Shown here: piece after piece, positions 10,996 through 60,567 of the stretch
Layout: each line of letters begins with the position of its first letter
Position numbering within the stretch: position 1 is the stretch's first letter
Assembly: GCF_030684315.1 (NCBI RefSeq)
Contig: NC_081375.1
Location: 35,019,073 to 35,083,072, forward strand
Length of the DNA: 64,000 nucleotides
DNA from: Stegostoma tigrinum
Lineage: Eukaryota
Reading direction: 5' to 3'
The notes under the pieces: model-generated
What the model saw: the letters and a program-made list of their open reading frames with translations, nothing else
What the model was told of the DNA's origin: nothing
Databases searched by the model: none
Translations under genes and position numbers: made by a program

Positions 10996-11520
10996 ATAAA
11001 TGAAGTCGAACCAAGCTACAGCTCTGGACAAAAAGTACAGTTTTGTCAACCTTTAAACAGCATTCATTTCTGTGAGCTCAGACTGCCACACAGATCTTTA
11101 GATAGGGCATTAACAAACAAGACAATGTTAATTTCTTTTCATTGGAATCTAAGTTATTTTGAGGCAAAATAAATGTTAAGGCTGACTCAATAAAAAAAAC
11201 TGCTGAAGCCAACCTTTTGTGCTGACAGAGCTAGAAACCAAGAATGCCATTCTTTCCTGACAGTTGATAAAAAGTAACAACCTTTCTCAAAACACCAGCT
11301 GCTGAATCTGTTCTTAAAGAAGGGACACTTTTAATGCCCACTAGCACTGTTTCGATGTACACTGAATTAAAAGGTTCAATATTTTTAATGCTGAGTCACT
11401 AATAGCAGGAAGCTTATTATGCAACTGCAAGTTATCCTTTACTGAATTACATCAATTCAAACAATATATGTAGCTCTAATTTACAAATCAAATAGATCTT
11501 GAGAAAAAAAATAGTGAAAG

Positions 11521-11610
11521 TCTGATGAAGGGTCTAGGCCCGAAACGTTAGCTTTTGTGCTCCTGAGATGCTGCTGGGCCTGCTGTGTTCATCCAGCCTC
11601 ACATTTCATT
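11521..11610 (+). mobile_element. Penelope-terminus monomer with hammerhead core, 13-bp TSD
   Basis: CTGATGAAGGGTCTAGGCCCGAAACGTT at 11522-11549; atagtgaaagtct at 11511-11523 and 11611-11623. Confidence 0.85.
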
Positions 11611-11689
11611 ATAGTGAAAGTCTTGTTTGCCATCAGCAAGAAGGGCCTTCACAGGAATAACGTCTGTTGTTTTCTGTGGCCGATCAGAA

Positions 11690-11880
11690 AGACCCAGAGA
11701 AGTTCTGGAGTTATCAAAGACCAGCTAACAGTAAGAAGTCACTTCAGGATTAATGGTCTCCAATTCATGTCACAGAGACAGCAAACCCGAGAGCCCATTG
11801 ACCAGTATGTCAGAAGATGCCGCAGCAAGGGGCAGGAGTGGGATTTTTCTACAGCAGTACTTCAGAGAGGTCTGTTAAAA
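11690..11880 (+). mobile_element. Probable Gypsy/Ty3 gag fragment
   Basis: Translates to FMSQRQQTREPIDQYVRRCRSKGQEWDFS, resembling the F-x-x-R-Q-x3-E-x-I-D-x-Y-V-x-R gag major-homology-like motif. Confidence 0.5.
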
Positions 11881-11894
11881 TTAATAATCATTTC

Positions 11895-12225
11895 TAGTGT
11901 TTGCAGCCCCAGTGCTGCCCAGTGTTTGAACCCTCACTGTTTAAATCCTTCGTATATTAAAACAAAAAACTGTTGATGCTGCAAATCTGAAACAAAAACA
12001 GAAATTGCTGGAGAAACTCAGTGGGTTTAGCAACACCAGCATTCCTTTGTGCCACTCAGTATTTGAATCTATGGTGTTTGTAATTTCAGTGCTGCCCAGT
12101 TTTAAATCCTCAATACTGCTGAGTGTTTAGATACTCAGTGCTGCCCCATGTTAAAATCCACAGTACTGCAGAGTGTTTGAATGATCAGCAATGAAACAAT
12201 GTTTGAATACTCAGTACTACCACTA
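11895..12225. repeat. Degenerate ~25-bp minisatellite (CAGTGCTGCCCAGTGTTTAAATCCT)
   Basis: Units start near 11910, 12087, 12111, 12136, 12161, 12186 and 12212. Confidence 0.7.
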
Positions 12226-12339
12226 TTTCTGCCTGCCTTCGCTGTGCTAATGTAGTACTGTTGCCTTGACCTGGGGAGTACCACATGCGCACTGTATAGC
12301 CTGTATCTACAGGGAGCAGCAGTGTTCGGTATGTAACTG

Positions 12340-12770: not shown

Positions 12771-12870
12771 GGCAGAACAAATGGGAATGCAAAACAAAAC
12801 AAAACTCTGGAACCTTTTCAGGGAGGGTAGAGCAATGTGCTTTGGGTAAAAATAGTACTTGTCAGTGACT

Positions 12871-13059
12871 GAGATAATGGGAACTGCAGATGCTGGAGAT
12901 TCCAAGATAATAAAATGTGAGGCTGGATGAACACAGCAGGCCAAGCAGCATCTCAGGAGCACAAAAGCTGACGTTTCGGGTCTAGGCCCGAAACGTCAGC
13001 TTTTGTGCTCCTGAGATGCTGCTTGGCCTGCTGTGTTCATCCAGCCTCACATTTTATTA
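12871..13059. mobile_element. Fold-back Penelope-terminus element (family A), 14-bp TSD
   Basis: Near-perfect ~75-bp inverted arms centred at 12982/12983; acttgtcagtgact at 12857-12870 and 13060-13073. Confidence 0.9.
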
Positions 13060-13706
13060 ACTTGTCAGTGACTAACTTGTAAACTATTTGGGCAGCCTTG
13101 ATTTGGATGGCTGGGTGCCCTTGCCCCAACCCTTACACTAGGTTTAAGATGCTACGGAGAGAGTGTGTCCTACCTGCAACCTGGGAGACCTTTAGCTGCC
13201 AGTTAAAGGCACAACTAAGACATACTGTGGCATAATCCTCAAAAATTGTTAGTGTTTTGTATTACCAGCTTGACATAATTGCTACAGTCACTCTGTCTAC
13301 TATACACCCAGAATTGGCATCAGCTTTAAAATAGGACCCATTTTTCCAATGAGAATCTTTACCAAGACTGATTGTATGTTGCATCTAGCCACTGCACAGC
13401 GCAGCGAATCTTGTTTCTGAGAACAGTTGAGGGTGCATCCACTGAACGGGTTTCAGATATAATTTGGTTGTGGTTGTATTGAAGCTTATTTTGTGTAAGT
13501 AATTACTGACAACAAATTTATTGAAGGCTTCTGCTACCTTAAGACCAATACATACATACAAAACATATTGCCAAATGCAAAATGTAGGTATTTATGGATG
13601 AACATTTATAAAATGTCACGAATAACAATATAAAAATATGATAATTCTGCTGTATCAATATTTTCTTCCCAGGTCTTACAGGCCACAGACTTTGTATGTT
13701 TGAAGA

Positions 13707-16172: not shown

Positions 16173-16176
16173 TAAT

Positions 16177-18360
16177 GAGATAACAAGGTGTAGAGCTGGA
16201 TGAACACAGCAGGCCGAGCAGGAAAGTTTGACGTTTTGGGTCGAGACCCTTCTTCAGAAATGGGACAGGGGAAAGGAATTCTGAAATAAATAGGGAGACA
16301 GGGAGAGGCGGATAGAAGATAGATAAAGGAGAAGATAGGGTGAAAGGAGACAAACAGGTCAAAGAGGTGGGGTTAGAGCCAATGAAGGTGAATGTAGGTG
16401 GGGTGCTAGGGAGGGGATAGGTCAGTCCAGGGAGGATGGACAGGTTGGGGAGAGGGGCGGGATGAGGTTGGTGGGTAGGAGATGGGGGTGGGGCTTGAGG
16501 TGGAAGGAATGGTTAGGGAGGTGGGGACTAGCTGGGCAGGTTTTGGGGCGCGGTCGGTGGAGGGGATATTTTGACGCTTTTGAAGTCCACATTGCCATCC
16601 TTGGGCTGCAGGGTTACCAAGCGAAATATGAGATGCTGTCCCTGTATCTTTCGGGTGGCATCATTGTGGCAATGCAGGAGGCCCAGGATGGACATGTCAT
16701 CCGAGGAGTTGTGGGGGGGAGTTGAAATGGTTCGCGACCGGAAGGTGTAGTTGTTTATTGCGAACTGAGCGTAGGTGTTCTGCAAAACAGTCCCCAAGTC
16801 TCCGCTTGGTTTCCCCAATGTAGAGGAGGCCACAACGGGAACAGCGGATACAGTATATCACATTAACAGATGTGCAGGTGAACATCTGTTGATTTGAAAA
16901 GTCTTCGTAGGCCCTGAGATGGGGGTGAGGGGGTAGGTGTAGGGGCAGGTGTAGCACTTGCTTTGGCTGCAGGGAAAAGTGCCAGAGGTGGTGGGACTGG
17001 AGGGAGTTTGGTGCAGATAAGAGAGTCACAGAGAGAGTGGTCCCTCCAGAAAGCACATGAGGATGGGGAGGGAAAAATGTCTTTGGTGGTGGGGTCAGAT
17101 TGCAGATGATGATGATGCATTGGATTTGGAGGTGGTACGTGAGGATGAGGGGGATTCTGTTTTGGTTATTATTGCAGGTAGTGGGTGTGAGGGATGAATT
17201 GTGGGAAATACAGGAGACACGGTCGAAGGCATTTTCGATCACTGTGGAGGGGAAGTTGCAGTTCTTGAGAAAAGAGGACATCTGGGATGTTCGGGAGTGG
17301 AATGCCTCATCTTGGGAGCAGATGAGGCGGAGGCAAAGGATTTGGGAATATGGGATGACCTTTTTACAGGACGGTGGGTGAGAGGAGGAATATTCTAGGT
17401 AGTCGTGGGAGTCGGTAGGCTTAAAATAGACATCGGTTTCCAGGTGGTTGCCAGAGATGGAGACAGAGGTGTCCAGGATGGAGAGAGAGGTGTCAGAGAT
17501 GGCCCAGGTAAACTTAAGGTTGGGATGGAAGGTGTTAGTGAAGTGGATGAACTGTTCGAGCTCCTCATGGGAACACAAGGTGGCGCCGAAACAGTCATAA
17601 ATGTAACGGAGGAAGAGATGGGGAATAAGGCCATTGTAGCTTTGGAAGAGGGACTGTTCCACGTACCCTACAAAGAAGCAGGCATAGCTTGGGCCCATGT
17701 GGGTACTCATGGCCACCCCACTTGTCTGTAGGAAGTGGTAGGAATTAAAGGAGAATTTGTTGAGGGTGAGGACAAGTTCGGATAAGCGGATGAGGGTGTC
17801 AGTGGAGGGGGCTTGTCAGGCCTGCGGCACAGGAAGAAGCAGAGGGCCTTTAGGCCATCTGCATAGGGAATGCAGGTGTATATGGACTGGACGTGCAAAA
17901 ACGAGATGTTGGGGACCGGGGAATTGGAAGTTCTGGAGGAGCTGGAGAGTGTGAATGGTGTCACAGACTAGGTAGGGAGTTTCTGGACCAAGGGGGAGAA
18001 AATGGAATCTGGATAGGTGGAGATAAGTTCGGTGGGGCAGGAACAGGTGGAGACAATGCGTTGACCAGGGCAGTCAGATTTGTGGATTTTGGGAAGGAGA
18101 TAGAAGCAGTCGGTGTGGGGTTGGGGAATGATGAGGTTGGAGAATGTGGGTGGGAGGTCACCTGAGGTGATGAGGTTGTGGATGGTTTGGAGATGATGGG
18201 TTGGTGCTTGGGGTTGGGGTAATGATCCAGGGGGTGGTAGGAGGAGGTGTCGGTGAGCTGGCACCTGGCCTCGGCGATGTAGAGGTCAGTGTGCCATACT
18301 ACAACTGCACCTCCCTTATCTGCGAGTTTTATGGTGAGGTCGGGATTGGAGGGGAGGGAG
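16177..18360 (-). mobile_element. Penelope-like retroelement (RT + GIY-YIG endonuclease), 5'-truncated and frameshifted
   Basis: FYLLPKIHK..PGQRIVS, AMSTHMGPSYACFFVG, LRYIYD (YIDD-like) and NVIYCIRCSRCGLLYIGETKRRLGDCFAEH; terminus with degenerate hammerhead at 16229-16257. Confidence 0.93.
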
Positions 18361-18361
18361 G

Positions 18362-18770
18362 TTTCACTTCAAGGTCAAATGATGAGAGGTGACCTGATAG
18401 AGGTTTTCAAAATTACGAGAAGAATGGGTAGTCCGAGTCTCTCTTCCCATGGTAGAAATGTCAGTCATTAAAGGGCATTAGTAAACTCGTTCTAAGGTTC
18501 AAGGTGGTAAGTTTAAAGATGTGAGAGGCACCATTTTTACACAGGGAGTGTAAGTGCCTGGAATGAGCTGCCAGGGGAGTGGTGCAGGTGGGTAGAATAG
18601 CAATGTTTAAGAGGCATCTTTCCAGATATATAAATTGGCGGGAATAGAGGGATATGGTCAGCATAAAGGCAAAAGGTTTTTAGTTTAGAAAGGCATCATG
18701 TGTTGATGCAGTCTTGGTAGGCCAAATGGCCTGTTCCTGTACTGTACTGTTCCTTATTCTCTTTGTTCTT
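18362..18770 (+). mobile_element. CR1 LINE 3' part, continuing 14255-16172
   Basis: MRGDLIEVFKI motif and tail cctgtactgtactgttc. Confidence 0.85.
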
Positions 18771-19349
18771 TAAATCTTGGGAAGCTATTTCCACTGGTCA
18801 GTGACTTAGTGACTCAAGGCATAAATCGACATAGGTAAACTGGACTAGGGAGCACTATTCACTTTTGTCGAATTCAAGTGATTAATGTGGCCAAATTGAA
18901 AATTGCAAAAGTACAGTGTAATCCCAATTCGTGCTTTTAAAAATTGCTGTTTACATAGTCCCAAGTCAATTCATGTAATATATTAAACAATAACTTACTA
19001 TTGCAATCACATGACATCTCAAAGAATTTTGCAGCTAATGAAGTACTTTTGAAGTGTTAAGGGCATGTTAAAGGAGAAGATTACATGTTATGCGGTAATG
19101 AAGTAAAATGTAATCAAATGGATTCTACTAACTTCCTTCGTACTTATTGAGCAGAGTTCTTGCGCAAGTGTGATTTCTTATACAGAAGCTGTTAGCGAGT
19201 TAAAAAAACCTTACAAAAAGTTAACTTGAAGTTTACTGTCTTGATATTTCCTGATTTAATGTGAAGATGAGTATTGTATCTATTCTGTACATCTTGTAAC
19301 TGAGCTTAAAAATGTCAAACTTTGCAATCTAACCTCACCACAATGGAAT

Positions 19350-19546
19350 CAGAGATAATAGGAACTGCAGATGGTGGAGAATCCAAGATAACAAAGTGTG
19401 GGGCTGGATGAACACAGCAAGCCAAGCAGCATCTTAGGAGCACAAGAGCTGACATTTCAGGCCTAGACCCTTCCCAAAACGTCAGCTTTTGTGCTCCTAA
19501 GATGCTGCTTGGCCTGCTGTGTTCATCCAGCCCCACACTTTGTTAC
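19350..19546. mobile_element. Fold-back Penelope-terminus element (family A), 14-bp TSD
   Basis: Inverted arms; caccacaatggaat at 19336-19349 and 19547-19560. Confidence 0.9.
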
Positions 19547-19554
19547 CACCACAA

Positions 19555-19885
19555 TGGAATGTGGGTGTTGCTAGCTTGGCCAACGTTAATTGCCCACCCC
19601 TATTGCCTAAGTGGCAGAAAAGCATCGACCACACTGCCATGGATCTGGAATCACAGACCAGGTAAGGATGGCAGATCTCCTTCCCTAAAGAGCATTAGTC
19701 AACTAGATTTTTTTTAAGTGACAACTGACACTGGTTACATGGTTGCCATTGGCTAACTTTTATTACAGATGTTCATTGAGTTTCAATTTCACCGTCAACT
19801 ATGTCAGAATTCTAACAAATGTTTCCACAACATTAGCCTGGCTTTCTGGATGCTAGCCCAATTACATTACCACTATTACCATCCC
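19555..19885 (-). mobile_element. tRNA-derived SINE, decayed
   Basis: Homologous to 9005-9362. Confidence 0.6.
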
Positions 19886-20233: not shown

Positions 20234-20343
20234 ATCTTTCCTCTGCTTTCCCACCTTGGTGCAGATGGTATTTTACTGGAGTATGAAGATATGTTTCCAT
20301 ATGAGGGGAAGCTGCAGGTGTTAAGGTCTCCACATGCCTACAG
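20234..20343 (+). CDS. HEXD: HEXD coding exon 2
   Basis: [37 protein letters not shown]; AG/GT, 110 nt. Confidence 0.97.
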
Positions 20344-20905
20344 GTAAAAGTTTCATAAATGAATTAATGTATGACTACTCAAACTTACTTTGATTTTTCT
20401 TCTAATTCATGAGGTTCAGTGGAATTTTAATGACATCTTGTTTCACAGTTTCCTGGTTCATTGGGACACTGGTTGTTCTCTTGCTGCCTAAGCCTGCTTG
20501 CCAGTATTGTACTTTTTGAGCAATTAATCAGTGGTTTTCAAGCATGGTGAATGTTATCGTAAAATTCCATTTGCAGAATTACTGGTGAAGTCCATAGATT
20601 CTTGTTCCCGAGAGCAGTGTTTAATTTATTTTTGCACTGTGGTATATTTGTCCTCATAAGTGGATGGAATAAAAAAATTTAAAAATATTTATGAAAATCT
20701 AGAACAATGCAAGGATGCTAAGATTCAAACAATCTATATGACAAGAGAAAAGATTGTTTGGGAGGTTGATTTTGGTTAGGTAATACATTGCCATGAAGAA
20801 AGCAACAGGATAGTATAAGCTCTTCAAACTCCCAATAATGCCAAGAAATGTGTGAGGTTTAGAGATATCTTTTTTGCTTACAGAGAACAGAGCTCTCTTT
20901 ATGAA

Positions 20906-21803
20906 CAAAAATAGAAGTTGCTGGAAAAGCTCAGCAGGTCTGGCAGCACCTGTGAAGAAAAAAATCAGGTCTAACAACCCTTCCTCAGAACTGATAGTAG
21001 CTGGGAAAACGTCGACTTATATATGCAGAAAATAGGGAGGGGATTGGGGTAGGGAGTGAACAAAAGGATAGAGCCCGGAGAGAGAGAGAGGAGCAGTTGG
21101 ACACGCAAAGGAATTGATAACAATCTAGCTGGGAGGGTGAATAGTCCTTAATGGGGACAGTTAGTGACTAACAATAGGTCGAGTGTAATGGCAGGCTATG
21201 TGATAACAAGACCTGGTGTGTGGGGTAGGAAGCTAGGACATGGGAGAGTTTAGGCTCTAAAGTTAAAGATATTGAGCCTGGAAGGCTGTAGGGTCCCCAA
21301 GTGGAAAATGAGGTGTTCTTCTTCCAGCTTGTGTTGAGCTTTGCTGCAACGCTGTAGCAAGCCTGAGACACAGATGTCAGCCAGGGAGCAGGGTGGTGTG
21401 TTAAAGTGGCAGGCAACAGGTAGCTCAGGGTCTTTTTTGCGAGCAGAATGTAGATGTTCTGTGAAGGGGTCACCCAGTCTATGCTTCTTTTCCCCAATGT
21501 AGAGGAGACCACATTGTGTGCAGCGAGTGCAGTGGACTAGATTCTTGGAAGTGCAGGTGAAGTGTTGCTTCAACTGGAAGGTATGTTTGGGCCCATGGAT
21601 CGTGGGGAGGGAGTAGGTAAATGAGTAGGTTTTGCACCTTCACTAGTTCCAGGGGAAGGTGTCGTAGGGCCATGGGGGCTACTGGGGTTGAAGGTAGAGT
21701 GGACCAAGGTGTCCCAGAGGGAACGGTCCCTGTGGAAAGCGGACAAGGGAAGGGAATTATGTGCCTGGTGGTGGCATCTCAATAAAGGTGATGGAAGTGG
21801 CCT
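20906..21803 (-). mobile_element. Penelope-like element (family B), GIY-YIG and 3' terminus
   Basis: HFTCTSKNLVHCTRCTQCGLLYIGEKKHRLGDPFTEH..PVACHFN..LEEEHLIFHLGTLQP; possible TSD tcttt(a/g)tgaa at 20896-20905 and 21804-21813. Confidence 0.88.
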
Positions 21804-22799
21804 TCTTTGTGAATTGTTTTAACCATCATAAATAAGGCAATTTACAAGCTTGACTGATTATCTTAAATTGGTTGTCTTTTTCAACTGACAACAGTATCTT
21901 GCTGGTGGAAAACACTACCTGTGAAGCTGCTGGAGAGTGGTAGCATGAAACAGCCAACATAAAAGGCATACGTTCTCACCAGCCCAACTTGGCATTCGTC
22001 CATCCCCATGGTGACCTTACTTCTGCTCCCCACCCTCCTGCCTTTTTGTCAAGGTGGTCCAGCAAGTCGGGAAGTTTCACCTTGAAAGCGAAATTCTAGT
22101 CCAATATCTGTGCTTTTAACAATTCCTTTGATATCTTCCCCCATATTTTCTTTACTGTTAGAAGTTTCACTTTCTTTTCCCCCAGCCTGAATGTTAATAC
22201 AGTGTTGGCTATATATGTTCTTCCACCATTAATAAATGTTAGTTGGAACCCTTGTATGTACCAGCTAAGAAAACAAGCAAAAACTGATCAACAGACAATA
22301 TTTTAAAGAACAGCTGACAGCCTACCCAAAACAAAAACATACACATGATTCAATACAAGCCTAAACTGTGTTTAAAATTCCCCATGGCTTTGGTCTTCCT
22401 TGCCTCCATAACCATCTCCAACTTTACCACATTTTGAGAACTTTACATTTCACCAGCACTCTTTTGAACATCCCTACCCAGTTTAAATATCATCTGAAAT
22501 CATACATTCAGATGTTTAGCAGCTATGCTCTGCAATTTCATCCTTAATTTTTTTTTAACCTCTTCACCTCCTTCCTCACTTAAGACCATCTTGAAGTTCA
22601 CCTTCTGACTAGACCTATTCCAGGTTGGCCCACTCTTTTCAATGACTCATTCCACTCCCATGGTGAACGAACTTATGCTTCCCACCCTCCTGTCTTTTTT
22701 GTCAAGTTTGCTTAAGGCATTGTATTATACTACAACAGTAGTGTAAAAATGTTCAACAGTACTTTACTGGATGTCAGTGCTAGAGCTGGCAGAAAATTA

Positions 22800-23240
22800 T
22801 ATAGATTTGGTGTTATGAGAATACATTGGATAGCAACTTAAGTTGTTCACAAGGTCAATGCAATTAATATAATCAGTTTAGATTTTCAAAAAGCTTTCCA
22901 CAATGCTTTTAAAATTAGATTACAAGATAAGGAAAGATTAATGGAGTTATTGGCTCATTAGTTTATTGAATTGCAGGCGGATTTGACAACAGAAAGGAGA
23001 TGGTAATGACAGTGGAGAAATTATCTGTTGGAATTTCGCAGGAATTTATTCAGCATCTCTTGCTATTCAGTTATTTTATAAATGTTGTGGGGCTTGCAGT
23101 CAATCATTTGCAGTCGCATTAAACTTTGTGACTAGATGCTGAACAAAAGAATCAGCTTACTCAGACTCATAAGATCTGAACAGACGAGCTGAGGAGTGAT
23201 GGACTTTACTGGAGGGAAGGGAATGTCATGTAACATGTAT
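22800..23240 (+). mobile_element. Ancient CR1/L2 RT remnant
   Basis: ttagattttcaaaaagctttc (LDFQKAF) and cagttattttataaatg remnants. Confidence 0.5.
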
Positions 23241-23650
23241 GTAATTTCCAGACTCTGAGTTGTCACCATTAATATTGCAGCAAGGAATTTCTGCGGTACC
23301 TCACTGGCAGGTTTGAAGGTAAGGGCTCTAGAGAAGTGTAGTGCATGGTCTGCTCTCCATAATCCATCTCCCCTTTTTTAGGGGGTGTGGGATGGAGATT
23401 GTGGTTGGTACACCCATCCTTCAGTCTATTGAGATTGTCAAGTGGCCAGTTAGTGGCCACCAAAGTACCTTATCCTGCTCCACCAGAGTGCAGGTTTGTA
23501 CATATTCACTGAGTATAATTGTAGCTTTACCTGGTTTCTTCTCCCACTTAGCATCCTGAAAAAATTCAATCAACTATAGAGGAACCTGGAAATGGAGGTG
23601 TATTCAGAGCTGGTGTGATTGTTAATAACATTGTGCTTTCCTCATTGCAG

Positions 23651-23738
23651 TCCATCAGAAATCAGAGAAATCATGAATCTTGCCAGAGTGCTTCATTTTG
23701 AAGTAATTCCATTAGTGCAAACCATTGGCCACATGGAG
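23651..23738 (+). CDS. HEXD: HEXD coding exon 3
   Basis: [29 protein letters not shown]; AG/GT, 88 nt. Confidence 0.97.
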
Positions 23739-23853
23739 GTGAGTTCAGAAACACAGTAAAGCTGAAAGGCCACATGGGGCTAAATCTCATGAAATTTCCA
23801 AAAAGAATGCATGAGAAACTTTACTGTAAATAATGCTGCCTCACAACAGATTG

Positions 23854-24199
23854 ACGTGGAGGTGCCGGTTTTGGACTGGGGTGGACAAAATCAAAAATCA
23901 CATGACACCAAGTTATAGTCCAACAGGTTTATTTGAAATCACAAGCTTTCTAACGCTGCCCCTTTGTCAGATTCAGTGAGAGGAGAGCAGACAGGCACAG
24001 AGTTTATGGGCAGAGAGGTGAAGGGCAGAAAGTTCGAAGGATTATTTGATTTCTGTGCCCTTCATCTCTCTGCCTACAAACTCTGTTTCAATGTGCTCTC
24101 CTCTCACTGCACCTGACAAAGGAGCTGCGCTTCAAAAGCTTACACTTTCAAATAAACCTGTTGGACTATAACCTGGTGCCATTTGATTTTTGACTTGGT
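23854..24199. mobile_element. Fold-back element (family C) with degenerate hammerhead arms
   Basis: ~145-bp inverted arms (gttatagtccaacaggtttatttgaaa / tttcaaataaacctgttggactataac); ctgacaaaggagctgcgcttcaaaagct is a decayed CTGATGA-AGGAGC..GCTCC-GAAAGCT. Confidence 0.75.
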
Positions 24200-24593
24200 T
24201 CACAATAAAATGCACAAGAATGCGTTAATTGCTGTGTGACTGAAGCCATATGAACATTTCCTTAGAAGTTAGATAACTGATCAAAGCCAGTACATCTTGT
24301 CTCAAATACTTCGCGTAACTTTGCAATGTTGCTTCCTGTCTTAAATGTGGTATGTAAGTCCAAACTCTGGTTTTTTTTTGGTATTGTGATATTCTGTGCT
24401 TCAAAATGTGAATCAGTCTGATACCGTTCACTGTAGTTGTACCCCTGTCAGTGTGGGACCTGGGATGCATATCCACTTAGCTACTGGAGAATACAATAAC
24501 CCATGAGAGATTTCTGTATACTAAATCCAGAATATATCATTATTGATAAGTTGAATTACCATTGAATGATACTTTTAAATCTTGTTCCTACAG

Positions 24594-24758
24594 TTTGTGC
24601 TGAAACATAAAATGTTTTCCCATCTTCGCGAAATGAAAGAGTTTCCTAACAGTCTCATTCCTTGTAAGGAGGAGTCCATGGAACTGGTAAAATCCATGAT
24701 TGACCAGATCATGGCAGTACATAAAGACTTAAAATGGCTGCACGTTGGATCTGATGAG
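24594..24758 (+). CDS. HEXD: HEXD coding exon 4 (catalytic HxGxDE)
   Basis: FVLKH..HLREMKEFPNSL..MIDQIM..WLHVGSDE; 165 nt. Confidence 0.97.
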
Positions 24759-24890
24759 GTACTGCAACAATTACGTGGGAGATTTGATGAGCAGTTTACA
24801 AACATATTGTGTGTCCACAGGACACTAAGTTAATTGTGTGGTGTTTACATTTTCTGAAATAAAAATTGTTTTTTTCTATGTTATCTTTAG

Positions 24891-27345: not shown

Positions 27346-27727
27346 GTATGTGAATTTGGGAAAAGGTTCATGAATGTGTTGCATTTTCACCACAGTCTAA
27401 TAAGTACACTTTTCATCCTTTTTGTTTAATTGTTCAGTTTATCTTTTCAGTTGATTTATTTTTACAGTCGAATAATGTTAAGGTATGAAATGAATCTAAA
27501 GGGCAAACAGTAGTTTAACAAATACATTTGGGTTGAAATTCCATTGAACAATATTAGTAAATATATTTGTACATAATTCTGCTGTCTACTATTTCAAAGT
27601 GCTCGACTCTTAACGAGCTAACCAAGTCACACAATTGTGCCAATTAGAATTGGGCAACAAATGCTGGCTTTGCCAGCGATCCCACATCCCATGAACTAAA
27701 TTTTAAAAAAAGCATTCAGCTGAATAT

Positions 27728-27775
27728 TGTGAGGCTGGATGAACACAGCAGGCCAAGCAGCATCTCAGGAGCACA
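27728..27775 (-). mobile_element. 48-bp family A Penelope-terminus insertion with TSD
   Basis: tgtgaggctggatgaacacagcaggccaagcagcatctcaggagcaca flanked by attcagctgaatat(tgtga) at 27714 and 27776. Confidence 0.8.
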
Positions 27776-28101
27776 ATTCAGCTGAATATTGTGATTGGCT
27801 CCACTTCCAAATGGTAATGAGAGGAACTTTGTATACTTGCATCAATGCTGTCTTCTGTACAAATGGATGCAATTTTGGTTGTCTGAAGAATCAATTTTAT
27901 TCCCAGATTATTGTGCATTTTACAGTTATATAAAAACAAAGCATTTAAAGAGACAAGTAATAGCAATTTGCAAAAGCATAGCATTGCTGTAATACACTTG
28001 CATCTGATAACATTTCATGACATAATATCTGGATCATTTTTATTATTTGTTGACTGTGATTAATGTTGATGTTTCCAAGAAGTAGGAAAATTTATCTATG
28101 C

Positions 28102-30799: not shown

Positions 30800-32420
30800 T
30801 CATATTTTTGGAGTGTGGGAAAAAGTTGAATAGCGGTATAAAAATAGATAGTAAAAGTTATTACAAATATTTGAATAGGAAAAAGGGGAGTATTTATTGT
30901 CCAGAAAAAGTGTCTGAGGAATTCATGATAGAAAATAAAGAAGTGGTAAAGATTTTGAACAGGTATTTTATGCCTTGCCTCAGCCAAAGCTAATTGAAAA
31001 TCAAAACAGTCCCCAGTGGATAAAGGGAAGCCAGTAGATGTGCTGTACTTGCAGTTATAAAAAGTGTTTGATAAAGTGTCACATTAAACATAACTGCACA
31101 CGAGCACATCATAAAGGGAGCAACATAATAAAATATATCAAGGAAGAATAGAGCATTGGTAAATTATTCTTTTTCAGGTTGACAGGCTGCAGCTAGTGGA
31201 GTGCCATAGGGATCAGTGCTGGATCTTCAGATATTTACAATCTTAATCAATGACTTGGAATAATGAGACATAGGTGGTTAAATTTGCCAATGACACCAAG
31301 ATACATAAGAGGATAAGTAGTCAAGAAGAGGTAGAGTCTGCAAAGGACAATAGATTGGACAAAGGACAAAGTTAATCAGCAAAGAATTTTGGCACATCAA
31401 ATATAATGCAAGTAAATATGAACTTGACTGTTTTGACAGGAAGAATAGAAATGTGGTGTTTAAATGGAAGGAGATTGCAGAACTAAGTGGTACAGAGGGA
31501 GCCAGGTATCCTTTTACATGAATCGCATAATGTTAATGTATAGGTACAAGAAATGATTGTGTAGGCAAATGGAATATTGGCCTTTATTGCAAGGTGATTG
31601 TACCATTACAGTGGGAACTTAATTGCAGTCACACAAGGTACTGTTGAGACAAAACTCTGGAGCAGGGTGTACAGTTATGAACGAACTCCTTATTTGATTT
31701 AAAAAAAAATGTTTTAGATGCAGATTAGAGAATGCTGACTCATTCCTGAAAGGATGAAAGGCTCACGATATGAAGAAAAGTCGAACACGTTTAATCTGTG
31801 TCCATTAGCATTTAGATGAATGAGAGGTGATCTTTTTGATGTGTAAGACCATGAGGGACTTTTTGGGTGGGTACACAGGGAATTTCTTTTTACTTTGAGA
31901 GAGATTAAAACCAGAAGACATTGTTTAAGAATAAGTGATCTCACTTTTAAAACAGAGATGAAGAGAATTTTGCTCTCAAAGTGCATTAGAATGTGAAATT
32001 CTCTTCTGCAGACATTAGTAGAGGCTGGTTTATTAAAGTATTCAGGGCTAAGTTAGATAGATTTTTGATAGACAAAGGAGCAATGGGTTATAGGCAGCAT
32101 TCGGGAAAGTGGAGTTGAAACCGCAGCCAGATCAGCTATAATCTTGTATCAGAGATAATGGGAACTGCAGATGCTGGAGAATCCAAGATAACAAAGTGTG
32201 GAGCTGGATGAACACAGGAGGCCAAGCAGCATCTCAGGAGCACAAAAGCTGACGTTTCGGGCCTCGACCCACCTGATGAAGGGTCTAGGCCTAAAACGTC
32301 AGCTTTTGTGCTCCTAAGATGCTACTTGGCCTGCTGTGTTCATCCAGCTCCACACTTTGTTATCTCAGCTATAATCTTATTGAATGATGGTGCAGGAGTG
32401 AAGGGTCAAATAGCCTACAC
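30800..32420 (+). mobile_element. CR1 LINE, old and decayed
   Basis: agtggagtgccatagggatcagtgctgg (SGVPxGSVL), aaatttgccaatgacacc (KFAxDT) and a CR1 tail. Confidence 0.75.
32146..32364. mobile_element. Fold-back Penelope-terminus element (family A), 14-bp TSD
   Basis: tcagctataatctt at 32132-32145 and 32365-32378; CTGATGA at 32273 with GAAA mutated. Confidence 0.9.
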
Positions 32421-36755: not shown

Positions 36756-38155
36756 AAAGTGTCATTACATTTATTGACTTTTAGAGATTGTCACATTCAA
36801 GTCCTTAATTTGAATGCATGACCTCCTTTGATTTCTAATTAGCATCATTCAAGATGAAGCCTACTGTATGGTAACTAACAAGAACAAGAGATTTAGCATG
36901 AAACGAGAACAAAATATTTAGTTCTTAAAACCCACTGCATCCATATTGTTTACAATCCATCCTAGCTATTTTGCCTCTCTTGAGGTGGAGAGTCCTGCAT
37001 TGAAGCTTTAATACTAATTGAAGCTGTACACCACAACTCACTCCTCAGACAGCAATGCCTTGCTGTAGCAGCACAGACTATTGTGAGCAATGGGCAATTT
37101 GGTAATCTCAGAAGAACATTAGTAAGAACAGCAAAAGATCATTTGGCTATGTAAGTCTGTGTGCCATTTCATAATACCATGACTGACCTCAGTCAATACT
37201 TCTTCCTAAAAATTTCAATTATTTTGCCTGTTTTGTATTGAATAGTGTAAAGCCATGTCACTAATAGTTAAGTTATAAACTCTTCTAGATCATTGAAGAG
37301 AATTGGTTACTTTGGCTTATTTTGAAATGGATTAATTCTTTGAAGTATAACTGTGAAGTACAGGAACAGAAACTAGCTAGCAGCAGTAAAAACTGTCACA
37401 AAAATGTTTATGTAGACATTGTACTGATTTAACACATAATTAAAAGCATCTATGCAATCATTTTTTGTTTTTAAATTTACTTGTCTTATTGAACATTTAG
37501 TGTAGATAGGCCAAAGTAGGCCAGAATGGTTTGAATGGTCATAGAGTCTTTTCCACAGGGTAGATTCAAGCTGTGTACAGGGATTTTGTGGAAATATTGA
37601 TGCAGCTGACTCTGACAGAACTGAAATTTTGTTGAGGCACGCACTGTGTCTGGCACTCTCCAAGAAAGTCCCTTAGAGTCAGAGATTTCAGAGGCTTCCA
37701 ACTCACTTACGCCAAATAGTTACTCTGGAAATGTTCAAGGATTAAACAGCTTACTCAAACTCCTTGCTGTCTAATAAACTTCATCCCGAACTCACGAGTG
37801 TACCCCAACTATGCTCTGAACCCAGATACTCCTAAGACTAACACCTTCAGCCCTGACCAGATCTCACGGGACGCCCATCCCTAAAACAAAACCACTCACG
37901 CTACCCTGGTCCCACTCAATGCACCATGTGCTCCACTCATCCAGACAATACCTTCACGACTTGACACCTCACCCACTTTACTGTCACCCTCACACAACAT
38001 CCACCATAACCCCTTACCTACATGCCATCCTAACCTCTTGTTCACCTGCCACCTGGAACTCTATCCCATACCCACTGCCAGTCTAACCTCAGTGCTGCCC
38101 TACCCCCAACCCAGTTGGCACCCTAACCTCCTAACCCACCTTAAACCCTCACAGA

Positions 38156-38472
38156 AACTTCTGGAAAAACTCAGCAGGTCTGGCAGCTTCTGTGAAGAGA
38201 AACCAGAGTTAATGCTTAAGGTCGAGTGACCCTTCCTTAGAACTGATGAAAGCTAGGAAAATGTCGGTATATATGCAGATGATATGCAGAGTACTGAGGA
38301 GGAAGTAAGGAGTAAATGATGAGTGGGGTAGAGCCCAACGAGAAAGAAGAATAGGACAAAGGAGTGGATAACCACATAACTCTGATTTCTCTCCACAGAT
38401 GATTCCAGATCTACTGAGCTTTTCCAGCAGTTTTTATTTCTGATTTACAGCATCCTGCAGATCATTCAGTTT
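38156..38472. mobile_element. Family B Penelope terminus with inverted second arm, 15-bp TSD
   Basis: Homologous to 20906-21120; ttaaaccctcacaga at 38141-38155 and 38473-38487. Confidence 0.8.
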
Positions 38473-38529
38473 TTAAACCCTCACAGACCTAGCTATCTAC
38501 AACCTAATGCATTTGCCACTCCCAGCCAA

Positions 38530-46865: not shown

Positions 46866-46962
46866 CTTGTTCTTGACTTTTATTCCACATGGTCAATATC
46901 CTTGTATAAAGGTTAAAATTTTTAAGAACTGCATTCCCTTTATTCTTGTCAAATATGACTTC
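46866..46962 (-). CDS. CYBC1: CYBC1 coding exon 4
   Basis: EVIFDKNKGNAVLKNFNLYTRILTMWNKSQEQ; 97 nt. Confidence 0.95.
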
Positions 46963-50418: not shown

Positions 50419-51849
50419 GAGGGATCTATGAACATGGACGCCCAGATCCCTCTGTTCCTCCACACTGCCGAGAATCCTGCCATTAACCCTGTATTCTGCA
50501 TTCAAATTCGACCTTCCAAAATGAATCACTTCACACTTTTCTGAGTTGAAGGAGACAATTCTGAGAGATAGTATTTATGATTGTTTGGAAAAGCACAGTT
50601 TGATTAGAAATAGTCAGCATGGCTTTGTGAGGGGCAGGTCATGCCTCTCAAACCTTACTGAATTCTTTGAGGATGTGACAAAACACATCGAAAGAAGTAG
50701 AGCAGTGAATGTGGTGTATATAGATTTTAGCAAGGCATTTCATAAGGTTCCACATGGTATGCTCATTCAAAATGTAAGAAGGTGTGGGATTAAGGAAAAT
50801 TTGGCTGTCTGGATACAAAACTGGCTGTCCGATAGAAGACACAGGGTGGTAGTAGATGTAAAGTATTCAGCCTGGAGCTTGGTGACCAGTGGTGTTCTGC
50901 AAGGATCTGTTCTGGGATCTCTGCTCTTTGTGATCTTTATAAATGACTTGGATGAGGAAGTGCATGGGTGGGTTAGTAAATTTGCTGACGACTCAAAGGT
51001 TGGTGGAGTGGTGGACAGAATGGAGGGCTGTTGTAGGTTGCATCAGGACATTGACAGGATGCAGAGCTGGGCAAAGAAGCAGTAGAGGCAATTCAACCTG
51101 AAAAAGTGTGAAGTGATTAATTTTGGAAAGTCGAATTTGAATGCAGAATACAGGGTTAATGGCAGGATTCTCGGCAGTGTGGAAGAACAGAGGGATCTTG
51201 GGGTCCACGTCCAAAGATCCCTCAAAGTTGCTACCCACGTTGATAGGGTTGTAAAGAAGGCATATGGTGTGTTGGCTTTCATTGGCAGGGAAATTGAGTT
51301 TAAAAGCCTCAAAGTTATGCTGCAGCTACATAAAACTCTGGTTACACCACACTTGGAATAGTGTGTTCAGTTCTGGTCATCCCATTATAGGAAAGATGTG
51401 GAAGCTTTAAGAGCGGGTGCAAAGGAGATTTACCAGGATGCTGCTTGGACTGGAGGGCAGGTCTTTTGAGGAAAGGTTGAGGGAGCTAGGGCTTTCTTTC
51501 ATTGCAACAAAGGAGAATGAGAGGTGACTTGATAGCCGTGTACAAGATGATGGGAGGCATAGATAGAGTGGATAGTCAGAGACTTTTTCCCAGGGTGAAA
51601 ATGACTATTATGAGGGGGCATAATTTTAATGTGATTGGAGGAATGTATAGGGGAGATGTCTGAGGTGGGCGTGAGGAATGTGCTGCCAGCAGTGGTAGTG
51701 GAGTCAGATAATTTAAAGACTTTTACGCGACTCTTGGGTAGGCACATGGTGGATAGTAAAATGTAAGTATGCAGGGTAGTTTGATCTTAGTAGGATAATA
51801 GGCCGGCACAACATCGTGGGCCGAAGGTCCTGTACTGTGCTGTACTGTT
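50419..51849 (+). mobile_element. CR1 LINE (RT to 3' tail) with 5' inverted duplicated segment
   Basis: SQHGFVRGRSCLSNL..YIDFSKAF..SGVLQGSVLG..KFADD; 50419-50550 is the reverse complement of 51092-51223. Confidence 0.92.
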
Positions 51850-51858
51850 AAAACTTAC

Positions 51859-54650: not shown

Positions 54651-55203
54651 ATAAGACAAGATGGGGTGAGGGGTTCTAAAAAGATGGTGTGCAGTAATGG
54701 AGATACAGCAATCATGCCAACTGATTCATTTGAAAAGTTTCTTTTATTATTTTTCTGTTAATTTTACCTAACATGATGAGCACAATTTCATGCAAGATAT
54801 AGTGCATTATTTTCTGTCAGTTACTGAAGTTCCAATTGGTGCAATGCGATGCTGCAGTTTGTGATGTGCTTCAATTTAGGTTTACTATCTTAAGTTGTAC
54901 AATTACGTTTAAACATACAATTGTCAAATAAATTGGTCAACAGCTTTAATTTTTTGTAGAAGAATTTCCAGTATTCATTGTTAGCTTTCCATCAATACAA
55001 AGGCATAAATAGACTAATAAAGGGCTTTAATAATTTCCTTTACATTTAATGACTGGCTGCCGTTATTGTGAGCACTACTGCATTAAGTCCATATCTTCTA
55101 TCTCATCGGTCAAAAACTCCAGATATAAAAAATAAAATAGACTTGCTCATTCTTCAGTATGCAAGGGTTTTGGTTTGTTTAAACATTGAAGCCTAGAAGC
55201 TAA

Positions 55204-56156
55204 GATAAAGAAGTGTACAACTGGATGAACACAACAGGCCAAGCAGCATCTTAGGAGCACAAAAGCTGACATTTCGGGCCTAGACCCTTCATTAGAAAAG
55301 GGGAGGGGGAGAGGGTTCTGAAATAAATAGGGCGAGGAGGAGAAGATAGGTGGAGAGGAGAGACAGACAAGTTAAAGAGGCAGGGATGGAGCCAGTGGAG
55401 GTGAGTTGTAGGTGGGGAGGTAGGGAGGGGGATGGGTCAGTCCAGGGAGGATGGACAGATCAAGGGGGCGGGATGAGGTTAGTAGGAAGAAAATGGGGAT
55501 GCGGCTTGAGGTGGCAGGAGGGGATAGGTGAGAGGAAGAACAGGTTAGGGAGGCAGGGACGAGCTGGGCTGGTTTTGGGATGCAGTGGGGGCAGAGGAGA
55601 TTTTGAAGCTTGTGAAGTCCACATTGATACCATTGGGCTGCAGGGTTCCCAAGCGGAATATGAGTTGCTGTTCCTGCAACCTTCGGGTGGCATCATTGTG
55701 GCACTGCAGGAGGCCCAGGATGGACATGTTGTCTAAGGAATGGGAGGGGGAGTTGAAATGGTTCGTGACTGGGAAGTGCAGTTGTTTATTGCGAACCGAG
55801 CATAGATGTTCCGCAAAGCGGTCTCCAAGCCTTCGCTTGGTTTTCTGCAAAGCAGTCCCCATGCCTCACTCACCAAACCTACACTCACCTCTCCTGGCTC
55901 CATCCCTGCCTCTTTAACTTGTCTGTCTCCTCTCCACCTATCTTCTCCTCTATCCATCTCCGATCCGCCTCCCCCTCTCTCCCTATTTAATTCAGAACCC
56001 TCTCCCCCTCCCCTTTTCTGATGAAGGGTCTAGGCCCGAAACATCAGCTTTTGTGCTCCTAAGATCCTGCTTGGCCTGCTGTGTTCATCCAGCTCTACAA
56101 TTTGTTATCTCGGATTCTCCAGTTTCTGCAGTTCCCATTATCCCTGATACAATTTT
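55204..56156 (-). mobile_element. 5'-truncated family A Penelope with inverted terminus, 14-bp TSD
   Basis: KTKRRLGDRFAEH..RLQEQQLIFRLGTLQP; 55853-56110 inverts the terminus; agcctagaagctaa at 55190-55203 and 56157-56170; hammerhead core at 56018-56045 (+). Confidence 0.92.
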
Positions 56157-56339
56157 AGCCTAGAAGCTAATGTTGGTGATAATAGGAGATAGGCATTTAA
56201 CATGTTTATACAATATGTCTTGCAGAGGCTATAAATAGTTTAAAATGAAGGTGTTGATGCTAACATTATAGTGAAGGGTGAGGAAATCTTACACCAATAC
56301 AGCAAGAAGTCATTTGCTAATATTGGCAACATTAATTAG

Positions 56340-56880
56340 TTAGGCCACTTTTGGAAAACTGCATTCAATTCTGATCTCCCTGCTATAGGAAGGATGTTGT
56401 GAAACTTAAAAGCATTCAAAAAAGATTTACAAGGATGTTGCTGGTGTTAGAAGGTTTGAGCTATAGGGAGAGGCTGAATACACTGGGGCTATTTTCCCTG
56501 GAATCTGAGGGGGTGAACTTATAGAGATTTATAAAATCATGAAGGGCATGGATAGGGTAAATAGCAAAGGTCTTTTTCCCGGGGTGGGGGAGTCCAAAAC
56601 TAGATGGCAGAGATTTAAGATGAGTGGGCAAGGATTTAGAAGAGACCTAAGGGACAACTTTTTCACACAGCAGGAGGTGCGTGTATGGACTGAGCTGCCA
56701 GAGGAGGCAGTGGAGGCTGGTACAATTACAACATTTAAAAGATATTTGGATGGGTATATGAATGACAATGGTTTAGAGGGATGTGGACCAAATGGAATTA
56801 GATTTGTTTTGGATATCTGGTCAGCATAGACAAGTTGGGCTGAAGGAGCTGTTTCTGTGCTGTACATCTCTATGATTCTA
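56340..56880 (+). mobile_element. CR1 LINE 3' fragment
   Basis: NFFTQQEVRVWTELPEEAVEAGTITTFKRYLD. Confidence 0.88.
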
Positions 56881-58065
56881 ATTCCTGATTTGAACAATTG
56901 CCTACCATTACAAACAACAGCTGAAAATCAAGATCTGATCTTTCCCAATCTTCATGTGAATGCTGCCCTTTTAAGATATTATTTATGAAGAGGATTAATT
57001 ACATATGTATGTTAATAATATTCAATTTTAATCTCCTACTACTTTTCATTACTGACTCTTGATTACATTATGTGAAACTTCTTCAGCAAAACACATGGTA
57101 AACCAAAGACATCTTGCTTTTCTCCAAAGATCCTTTGTTTTCGATTCCACCCTTCTCCTCAAGCTTAATTAAATCATGTTCAGCATCAGTTTTCTGTTAG
57201 GCCCAGAGCTGAGCTTCAAATCCTACAAGTCTTTCTATCTCTAAAAGTCTACAACAGCTAATACTTTGAAAATATCATTACCTTGTCCTTTTGGTAAGCA
57301 TTTAAATGGCCCAACAAATGGAAGAAAGCCAATATGTTTGTTATTTCCTTTAAGTAACTGAAACTATACTGTGACTCCATAATCTCTTCCTACAGTGAAC
57401 AATAGAAGCATCACAGCACTACTCAGTTTAAATTTAAATTTTTGAACAAAATCAGTTAATGAAAGATGCAAAGAACTATGATATTACAAACACATACCAC
57501 AAACAGAAATTCATCTAGTTACCTGTTTAGAATGAGAACAGTAAATTTTTGCAGTCTGACACAAAACCATTACTTTGATTGCATGCAGTGACTCTGTTGC
57601 ATTATTTTCCAGTGTCTGATCCTAAGTACTCTACATTAACTTTCTACATAGATTCCAGTCAGCTTGACGCGCTTCTATAATTGAATCATGAAATTAAATA
57701 AGAGAAAAAATTACAAAGGATATGAGGAAAGCACTTAGCAGTCTACTCTATCCCAGCTCTTGTTATTGGCAATCCAGTTAGTCCCACTCCCCATTCCATG
57801 TCTCTCACCCAGCAAATCTCTTCTTTCAAGCAATTATCTAGGTCACTTTCAAAACTCACCACTCCTTTCAAGCAGTGTGTTCAAGATCGTAAATTCACAT
57901 TGAAGTGCTTTCCCTCATATTTCCATTGGTTCTTTTGCCCATCAAATTAAATTTGATGTTTGGATTACGGAGTACAGAAGCGGTCCTTCAGCTCATCAAA
58001 TCCTCTGGCTGTAGACCAAAAGGAACAGTCACTGTCCCAATCACTATATCTAACCCTCTCAAAGA

Positions 58066-59390
58066 GTCATAGAGCTGTACAGCACAGAGAAAGACCATTC
58101 AGTCCAACTCATCCATGCTGGCCAAACATCCTAAATTAATCTAGTCCCATTTACCAGCATTTGGCCCATAAACCTCCAAACCCTTCCCATTCAAATAGCC
58201 ATTCAGATGTCTTTTAAATGTTGTATTTTTACCAGCCTCCACCACTTCTTTTCACAGCTCATTCCATACACATACCATCATGTATGAAAAAATTGCCCCT
58301 TAGGTCCCTTTTAAATGTTTACCCTCTCACTTTAAACCTAAGTCCTCTAGTTCTGAACTTCAAAAGACCTTGACTATTCACTCTACCCATGCCTCTCATG
58401 ATTTAACTTCTAAGGTCATCCCTCAGCCTCCAACGCTCCAGGGAAAACAGCTCCAGCCTCTGCCTATAGCTCAAACTCTCCAACCTTGGCAACATCCTTG
58501 CAAATCATTTCTGAACCATTCCAAGTTTCAAAACATCTTTCCTTCTGCAGGGAGACCAGACGTGAGCACGGTATTCCAAAAGTGGCCTAACCAGTGTCTT
58601 TTACAGCCACAGTATGACCTCTCAATCCCTACACTCAATGCACTGACCAATAATGGCAAACATATTGAACGCCTTCTTCATTATTCTGTCTACCTACAAC
58701 TCCACTTTCAAAGAAATATGAACCTGCAGTCCAACTTTGTTCAGCAAAACTCCCCAGGACCTTACCAGTAAGTGTATTAGTCCTGCCTTGATTTGCCATA
58801 CTGAAATAAAGCACCTCTCATTTATCTAGATTAAGCTCCATCTGCCACTGCTCAGCCCATCTGACCAAGGTCCTGTTGTACTCTGAAGTAACCTTCTTAG
58901 TTGACAATTGCACCACCAATTTTGGTGTCATCTGCCATACCTCCTATATTCACATCCAAACCACTTCGATAAATGATGAAAAGCAGTAAACCTAGCACCG
59001 AGCCTCGCTGCACACCGTTAGTCACAGGCCTCCAGTTAAAAGAATCAACCCTCCACCGTCACCTTCTGTCTCCTACTTTCGAGGCAATTTTGTATCCAAA
59101 TGGCTAGTTCTCTCTGTATTCCATGTGATCCAGCCTTGTTAATCAGTGTACATGCAGAACTTTATCCAACACCTTACTGAAGTCTATATAGACAATGTTC
59201 ACCGCTCTGCCTTCATCAATCCTCTTCATCACTTCCTCAAAAAACACAATCAAGTTAGAGAGACACGTGTTCCCAGGCACAAAGCTACATTGACTATCAC
59301 TAATCACTCCTTGCCTTCCCAAATACATGTAAATCCTGTCCCTCAGGATACCTTCCAACAACTTGCCCTCCACCAATGTCAAACTCACTG
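58066..59390 (-). mobile_element. CR1 LINE RT to 3' end, decayed
   Basis: SLTLVEGKLLEGILRDRIY..CLSNL..VYIDFSKVLDKV. Confidence 0.88.
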
Positions 59391-59886
59391 ACCTTGATTT
59401 CGAACAGCCCTAGTAAATCTGTTACAACTCTTTCTATCATTTCAATATTCTGAAAATCAAACAAACACCTTATATATTAGAACAACTGTGACCACATTTG
59501 ACAATAACTTATTCCTCAACCCCTATTGTTGTCATTCTGCATTAGCTTCGTCTCCTAGTGCACCAAGTCTAAAACTATTGTTCTTATTTACAATTTCCAC
59601 CGCAGCCTTACTTCACTACTTGTACAATATCTATCAGTGCTTTTACCAAGCCATCTCTACAGCCCTCTGACTGATTCTGTGTTACCCACCTAAGTAGTTC
59701 TCATTTTTCAGATGGTAGATTTTTCAAGTACATAGGTTATACATTCTGCAATTAGTTCCTGAACCACCCCTCTACCACACATCTTTAAAAAGTCTCCTAA
59801 GAAAGTACCTTCTTGACTATGTTCTTTCTCAATTCTCCATACTAGCACTCGTTCCATTTTCTCAGATGTAAAATGTAAGCTACAAA

Positions 59887-60126
59887 GAGAATCCAAGATA
59901 ATAAAGAGCGGAGCATGATGAACACAGCAAGGCCCAGCAGCATCTCAGGAGCACAAAAGCTGATGTTTCAGGCCTAGACCCTTCATCATCATCATCTGAT
60001 GAAGGGTCTAGGCCCGAAATGTCAGCTTTTGTCCTCCTGAGATGCTGCTTGGCCTGTTGTGTTCATCCAGCTCCACAATTTGTTATCTTGGATTCTCCAG
60101 CATCTGCAGTTCCCATTATCTCTGAT
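59887..60126. mobile_element. Fold-back Penelope-terminus element (family A)
   Basis: ~105-bp inverted arms around a (cat)n spacer; CTGATGAAGGGTCTAGGCCCGAAATGTC at 59996-60023; flanks ctacaaa(g/c)agaa. Confidence 0.9.
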
Positions 60127-60567
60127 CTACAAACAGAAGTCTGTTATTTTTAAATTGTATTACAACTAACAGGAAAAGATTGTATCTTCAGCATCTAGAA
60201 ATTTCCCAATGGATGATTAGCTCATGCCATAATAATTCTTTGACAACTCATGTCGAACCAGGAACTGTACATGTCTTTAACCATTTTGTTTCTCTAATCT
60301 CCATCAAAGCACTCTTGACTTACATTGCACCTTTTAATAGCATGGATTACATTTTACATGTACTGAATATTAAGATGTCAATTAATTCACTGCTGTAAAG
60401 CAGATATTTCAATACAGTTCTTAATTCTAATCATCCTTGCTTGGAATAATCCGTTTTTTAATGCTTTGTGACTGTTGAGTTCATCATAAGAGGCTTCCAT
60501 CTTCACATAACAGCAATTTATGGTTTTCTATTAAGGTAATGGTCAAAACACCACTAACAGTGCAGGA

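Follow-up and report, generated by a model that had tools for sequence, protein, structure and literature searches.

Inverted truncated copies with a tail of 30-40 bp at one end have been published for Penelope-like insertions (PMC8557442), and 34-bp end repeats and inverted termini have been described (PMC2377424). For rotifer elements, junction palindromes, a 15-bp overlap of the arms and target site duplications (TSDs) of 8-10 bp were reported (PMC3846280). Neighbouring hammerhead pairs on opposite strands were described as well (PMC4209133). With a Poseidon element in vitro, both strands were cut and extended, two start sites of the reverse transcriptase (RT) bounded the tail, and hammerhead mutants still inserted (PMC11167929). 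The origin of the inverted ends and one-sided tails was stated as unresolved (PMC8557442, PMC11167929). Here, a stretch of 64,000 nucleotides from Stegostoma tigrinum (contig NC_081375.1, positions 35,019,073 to 35,083,072 of the forward strand), called the window, was analysed with respect to short insertions of one Penelope terminus. A reading of the DNA alone (the original prediction) had regarded them as a new class of ribozyme-delimited mobile units. The inserts are real and of a known kind, namely truncated, inverted Neptune-type insertions, and the window gives no support for a new class. Very probably, they are dead-on-arrival, severely 5'-truncated by-products of a shark Neptune-clade Penelope-like element.

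Insertions of one Penelope terminus

Loci were found by self-BLAST. Coordinates are positions within the window, position 1 being its first letter. Signed positions refer to the hammerhead motif with C3 as +1; cleavage is predicted after +28, and a cleaved molecule would start at +29. The loci sharing the terminus are called family A. They are listed here together with the hammerhead reference.

2514..2879, minus strand: 5'-truncated single arm of 366 bp, same subfamily as 11521, 12871 and 27728; overlooked before
11511..11623, plus strand: single-arm 3' end without tail (insert 11521); arm start at hammerhead position 0
12857..13073, no strand assigned: fold-back 12871-13059, tail on the left side; exact 14-bp TSD 12857/13060
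16177..18370, minus strand: Neptune-type element of 2.2 kb, 5'-truncated and frameshifted, sister subfamily; RT, GIY-YIG and the same terminus; overlooked before
19336..19560, no strand assigned: fold-back 19350-19546, tail on the left side; exact 14-bp TSD 19336/19547
27714..27794, minus strand: single arm of about 48 bp, +34 to +84 (insert 27728); 19-bp duplication 27714/27776
32132..32378, no strand assigned: fold-back 32146-32364, tail on the left side; exact 14-bp TSD 32132/32365
55190..56170, no strand assigned: long two-armed insertion 55204-56156; exact 14-bp TSD 55190/56157
56018..56047, plus strand: minimal type I hammerhead, reference position (+1..+30), predicted from the motif definition in PMC4209133
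59878..60138, no strand assigned: fold-back 59887-60126, tail on the right side; imperfect TSD
60563..60646, minus strand: older single arm with tail, arm start +50; overlooked before

All seven insertions named by the original prediction were present at their positions, and the window holds 10 loci of family A. The predicted density of one per 8 kb applies to all insertions counted; the short hairpins alone, 4 in 64 kb, amount to one per 16 kb. No match (0) was obtained when stray copies of the family were sought in bacterial and archaeal genomes.

By its sequence, the terminus of family A is the 3' end (pseudo-long terminal repeat, pLTR) of a Neptune-type Penelope-like element, as the predicted Penelope origin implied. 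The relative at 16177-18370 (minus strand) carries, in this order, RT, a C-x4-C-x2-C linker, GIY-YIG, a C-rich 3' untranslated region (UTR) and the family A terminus. For this element, 28 homologs were found among 795 candidates, the best of them in Rhincodon (78%), Stegostoma (75% across 84% of the query) and Chiloscyllium (63-66%), a set that indicates a carpet shark. Homologs of the RT region carry PF00078/PF26215/PF01541. In a Pfam scan the RT fragments were not detected, and the RT identity comes from the homolog search; GIY-YIG was matched with E 0.0027 and 18.4 bits, under the cut-off of 22.6. The linker is present in the translation and in one homolog. A CX2-5CxxC linker between RT and endonuclease (EN) is described as a Neptune marker (PMC8557442, PMC3846280). 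With a difference of 9-24% in its terminus, 16177-18370 represents a sister subfamily and not the direct parent of the inserts. The claim that the Penelope RT/GIY-YIG machinery mobilised the inserts is counted as supported.

An exact TSD of at least 13 bp was found at 6 of the 10 loci. Exact matches of this length are near-absent by chance: among 3000 pairs of 70-nt stretches drawn at random outside the loci, 4 had one. Four exact 14-bp TSDs were confirmed, as was the 13-bp TSD of insert 11521 (11511-11523/11611-11623), which shares 2-3 nt with the element at either end. The match predicted for 59887 (11/12) turned out to be marginal: this TSD (59880/60127) is exact over 7 bp, reaches 11/12 or 12/14 with mismatches allowed, and its best score was equalled by 15 of 600 null pairs. 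Insert 27728, described as having 14 plus 5 bp, does have a duplication, which counts as 19 bp because the TSD lengths of the other loci include terminal microhomology (5 nt here); its 3' end lies about 10 nt short of the usual end. Most TSDs take in 1-3 bases that also belong to the element end. TSDs were looked for at the copies 2514, 60563 and 16177 (16176) and not found. Including a family B insert at 38141-38487, the lengths are 13, 14, 14, 14, 14 and 15 bp and one 19 bp. On these tight lengths, the predicted staggered cut of about 14 nt is upheld as an inference. The bases preceding the putative nicks are A or T in 11 of 12 cases, which is partly forced by microhomology. Two target sites are palindromic, 27714-27725 (12 bp, perfect) and 12861-12869 (9 bp including a central base); the remaining ones lack such symmetry.

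Arms, junctions and the hammerhead

The four short two-armed inserts are hairpins, as had been claimed: folding gave -135 to -165 kcal/mol with 77-89% of the bases paired. The predicted extension of one arm (about 35-45 bp) was also found, being complete on a single arm in 5 of 5 two-armed inserts; in 59887 the opposite arm still carries about 8 nt of it. This one-sided tail (5/5 two-armed loci) and the exact 14-bp TSD (4/5) are features of truncated and inverted Penelope insertions. Tail ends and no-tail ends are both ragged across the inserts. Their 3' ends cluster at +90 to +94 and at +122 to +128 (e.g. 32146-32190, minus strand), at or just past the same T-rich motif of 5-6 nt. Furthermore, 8 nt within the tail are complementary to 8 nt further upstream, and a similar stretch occurs in family B. 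The T-rich motif and the complementary stretches are possibly an RT start signal and an RNA stem.

The ragged and asymmetric ends already contradict true miniature inverted-repeat transposable elements (MITEs), which a DNA transposase would mobilise via their terminal inverted repeats. Inverted ends and a near-constant TSD length would suit such elements; the single-arm copies share the TSD, however, and the sequence is a retroelement 3' end. We give this explanation next to no credence.

Between 48 bp and 2.2 kb the insert lengths grade continuously, and the series takes in the long two-armed 55204, which shares TSD and tail with the short forms. Its no-tail arm of about 650 bp (minus strand) reaches the GIY-YIG region, and its tail arm spans about 300 bp (plus strand). 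At the 55204 junction (55815-55866) a stretch of about 20 bp is copied twice, which suggests a template jump of the RT. Since 55204 shows that long forms exist, later internal deletions could have collapsed longer inverted insertions into the short hairpins. However, the single-arm 11521 and the family-B-like ends at 2326 and 40482 likewise start at the first bases of the hammerhead, and 12871 is young, given 0/69 differences between its arms. Deletions also tend to destroy perfect palindromes and not to create them. This origin is therefore considered very improbable.

The junctions of the four hairpins are all different (0/6 pairs with a common junction). Stem II of the hammerhead (12978-12989, in sense orientation on the top strand) forms the junction of 12871, with a 3-nt overlap. 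The arms of 19350 end at +6 and +19 and overlap by 1 nt. Two bases are added at the junction of 32146, where the arms reach +9 and +1, and the hammerhead core of its right arm is mutated. In 59887 a slipped 3-nt repeat separates the arm ends at +2 and 0. The no-tail arm contains 5' sequence missing from the tail arm in 12871, 32146 and 55204 (3/5), and also in the family B insert 38155. Thus, at these loci neither arm can simply have been copied from its partner.

The minimal type I hammerhead predicted for the terminus could be read in copy 2514, which has 4 of the 4 features given in PMC4209133: the core boxes, an extra base after position 9, the G10.1-C11.1 pair and the palindromic 15.2-16.2. 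Judged by eye, its helix I has 2-3 bp only. The best-preserved copy of the 30 nt (2581-2610, minus strand) folds into a single hairpin with -10.9 kcal/mol. An Rfam search (E up to 1) reported no hammerhead family. A match to MIR6457 (65.9 bits, cut-off 140) was rejected, as the long hairpin alone accounts for it.

The proposal of ribozyme-delimited units found no support. In family A, 0 of 15 arms begin at the cleavage site (+29). The arms start at 0 (11521), +18/+9 (12871), +6/+19 (19350), +9/+1 (32146), +2/0 (59887), +34 (27728) and +50 (60563), or far upstream (2514, both arms of 55204, 16177). The full catalytic core is kept in one of the eight hairpin arms, the right arm of 59887. There, a core-compatible fold would cost +38.6 kcal/mol, compared to +7 to +8 in two single-arm copies, and folding predicts that this core is sequestered in duplex. 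From either strand of a head-to-head insert the antisense arm is transcribed first; hence, the core would be zipped up while emerging. Hammerhead cleavage does not define the insert unit.

These data also bear on the idea of the hairpins as non-autonomous, palindromic units similar to retrozymes or MITEs, with many masters whose transcripts the Penelope protein would remobilise. The high local density, the clustering of ends at the hammerhead and the element's priming region at both hairpin ends speak for it. Furthermore, pLTRs in cis are described as sufficient for a sequence to be mobilised in trans (PMC3846280), and retrozymes derived from pLTRs are known (10.64898/2026.07.22.740005). In contrast, a common junction is lacking, the outer ends are variable, 12871 falls with the long 2514 and not with other hairpins, no arm starts at the cleavage site and the single full core is trapped in duplex. 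The metazoan retrozymes described are direct tandem repeats (PMC7229834). We regard remobilised units as improbable, and the class assignment of the original prediction is not retained: the arms are inverted, the ends ragged and asymmetric, and the four junctions different.

Whether the hairpins were amplified as units was further examined by arm comparison. Arms within a locus are closer than arms of different loci (5.9% compared to 8.5% with CpG columns excluded; 6 of 945 pairings were as good), as expected where both arms copy RNA of one subfamily. Between hairpin 12871 and the long non-hairpin copy 2514 there are 1/78 and 2/76 differences, compared to 4-9 between 12871 and the other hairpins. 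Differences between the arms of a locus range from 0/69 (12871) up to 9/97; thus, the inserts are of different ages. Judged from these sequences, independent formation from several subfamilies fits.

Formation of the inserts

The identity with the 3' end of the element, the head-to-head inverted arms, the tail on one arm and the TSDs are read directly from the DNA, and from these we infer the mechanism. Each insert would have been made independently from element RNA. The RT/GIY-YIG protein would nick both strands about 14 nt apart, and each 3'-OH would prime a complementary DNA (cDNA), often aided by a few bases of homology between target and RNA. One priming site would be at the pLTR end (+90 to +94), the other 35-45 nt further on, which would give the tail. 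Both cDNAs would halt early, often within the 30-nt hammerhead hairpin, and would be joined head-to-head via microhomology or end joining. Where one nick alone primed, a single-arm insert would result. This twin priming is the probable route, with less confidence than in the by-product origin itself.

A variant of the by-product origin is snap-back, in which the second arm is made when a single cDNA or antisense RNA primes itself at the hammerhead hairpin. The stretch +1..+30 is quasi-palindromic, the 12871 junction is exactly stem II, 19350 and 59887 fit, and self-priming was proposed for rotifer elements (PMC3846280). In 12871, 32146, 55204 and 38155, however, the spacer is supplied by the arm opposite the tail, a layout that a single self-copy could give only with an additional template switch. 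Two cDNAs are favoured over snap-back because the arms at these four loci each hold sequence that the other lacks. Snap-back is considered unlikely.

Several observations weigh against the by-product origin or its proposed mechanism. At 5 of the 10 loci the 5' ends fall at 0 to +19, above the expectation for smooth truncation, and the end positions are not random. In family B, the start of arm 38377 is no more than 1-2 nt away from the predicted cleavage site. Unique junctions together with broad TSD lengths had been named as the pattern of ordinary truncated insertions; all junctions are unique, whereas the TSD length is tight and its spread narrower than "variable". The four unique junctions rule out only one to three masters, since by arithmetic 10 equal masters yield four different junctions half the time. 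The similarity of arms within loci could alternatively come from gene conversion. Two hairpins, 19350 and 59887, fit single-cDNA snap-back equally well, and the element with in vitro precedent is a Poseidon, not a Neptune, element (PMC11167929).

For the pile-up of 5' ends at the hammerhead, P is 1e-4 with a log-uniform or uniform null and 0.015 with the most favourable exponential, for an interval picked after viewing the data. Four arms stop at 0 to +2. Family C lies outside this pattern. RT stalling plus local microhomology is the likely cause: +1..+30 folds as a hairpin after a C-rich tract, which precedes it in most copies. A transcription start at the hammerhead is not favoured, by analogy with D. 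virilis, where about 120 nt, made up of 46 nt and a 75-nt intron, separate the upstream transcription start from helix I (PMC4209133, PMC2377424). A foreign upstream exon as a sign of a spliced template was found in none of the arms. Separately, two diverged family-B-like single ends (2324-2414 and 40480-40598, plus strand) show homology beginning two bases before the hammerhead core; subfamily divergence could explain its start at 2326 and 40482.

It is possible, and is put forward tentatively, that the hammerhead acts as a structural stop-and-join signal, i.e. as a hot spot of truncation and joining. Much further goes the reading that stopping and joining, not RNA cutting, is the main job of the motif, in whose quasi-palindrome two cDNAs primed at a fixed stagger of about 14 nt would halt and anneal, and that the fold-backs of about 200 bp, which carry priming sites at both ends, are partly remobilised as a palindromic class from many masters. 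This combination is doubtful and of low probability.

The inserts, being abundant, very short and two-armed with clean TSDs, constitute a natural dataset for the mechanism of inverted Penelope ends. They predict a stagger of about 14 nt and one start site per nick, and the arm that supplies the spacer discriminates twin priming from snap-back. Given the narrow range of TSD lengths, the rule of one tail per insert and the hot spot at the hammerhead, the question of mechanism could be tested genome-wide at little cost. Furthermore, the accumulation of 5' ends may be relevant to the retention of a ribozyme whose cleavage is dispensable in vitro. As a conjecture only, near-perfect intronic hairpins of 70-95 bp could serve as substrates for editing or small RNAs.

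Surroundings and comparison with known systems

Two other Penelope families with inverted arms occur in the window.

23857..24203, no strand assigned: family C, fold-back (about 340 bp), extension on the left side; arms 80% identical
38141..38487, no strand assigned: family B, inverted arms, extension on the right side; exact 15-bp TSD

Since both families show inverted arms with a one-sided extension, this architecture is generic. In family C, which we take to be a Penelope family, the middle of the fold-back and the hammerhead-like motif are about 60 nt apart, the former being upstream. Decayed TSD candidates of family C (10/13), 40482 (11/14) and 20906 (11/14) were dropped, as they were equalled by 37%, 17% and 17% of 600 random pairs. 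TSDs were also sought at 2326 and 11975 and not found. Further family B fragments lie at 20906-21800, 11975-12022 and 44424-44450 (all minus strand), the first of which contains a GIY-YIG-like frame at 21250-21639. A diverged direct duplication of about 250 bp is present at 2073-2325 and 4128-4362; a family-B-like end starts exactly where its first copy stops.

Two Pfam-confirmed exons of CYBC1 were identified on the minus strand (44745-44891 and 46861-46962). With these exons, the predicted intronic position has partial support for 55204 and 59887; the 5' exons of CYBC1 are unmapped. Exon-like frames at 5117-5331 (minus strand), 20234-37150 (plus strand) and 62915-63058 (plus strand) presumably belong to OGFOD3, HEXD and NARF, respectively. 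If these names are right, most inserts are intronic. Besides CYBC1, a Pfam scan of the host exons gave no relevant match. CpG-richer stretches lie near 12.3-12.6 kb and 61-63 kb. LINE-like (long interspersed nuclear element) fragments with inverted segments were found at 50419-51223 and 56339-58591, with an RVT_1 match at 50525-51082; we assume them to be of CR1 type. The inverted segments are possibly LINE inversions.

In twin-priming inversions of L1, two nicks prime two cDNAs which are joined head-to-head inside a TSD, as proposed here. L1 inversions copy non-overlapping parts of the RNA, whereas both arms copy the same 70-90 nt in the present inserts, giving a hairpin. For Penelope elements, TSDs of about 10-14 bp are quoted. 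A literature search covering few subscription papers yielded no paper that describes fold-backs of Penelope elements in sharks, a stagger of 14 bp or twin priming by Penelope elements.

The inserts resemble EN-containing Penelope-like elements of the Neptune clade (PMC8557442, PMC3846280, PMC2377424) in the 3' UTR/pLTR terminus, the minimal hammerhead and the 5' truncation. Head-to-head arms, a palindrome or overlap at the junction, a tail of 30-45 bp on one end and a TSD are likewise common to both. Different from the published insertions, the insert here often consists of two pLTR ends only (190-240 bp) with no open reading frame (ORF), and 5' ends pile up in the hammerhead. The TSDs are 13-15 bp long, compared to 8-10 bp in rotifer elements (PMC3846280). 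In the parts of the Penelope literature consulted, no account was found of ORF-less inserts of two pLTRs, TSDs of 13-15 bp or a pile-up at the hammerhead.

The Poseidon element of Anolis carolinensis studied in vitro (PMC11167929) is similar regarding the two RT start sites bounding the tail, the cutting and extension of both strands, the preference for AT-rich cut sites and the dispensable hammerhead cleavage. It belongs to another clade, and stagger length and inverted products are not covered in the accessible part of that study. Metazoan non-LTR retrozymes (PMC7229834; 10.64898/2026.07.22.740005) are, like the inserts, non-coding, derived from pLTRs, hammerhead-containing and dependent on Penelope proteins, and have longer TSDs. 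They are described as direct tandem repeats with intact hammerheads, from which unit-length and circular RNA is released. In contrast, the hairpins of family A are inverted, mostly without a full core, and not bounded by the cleavage site.

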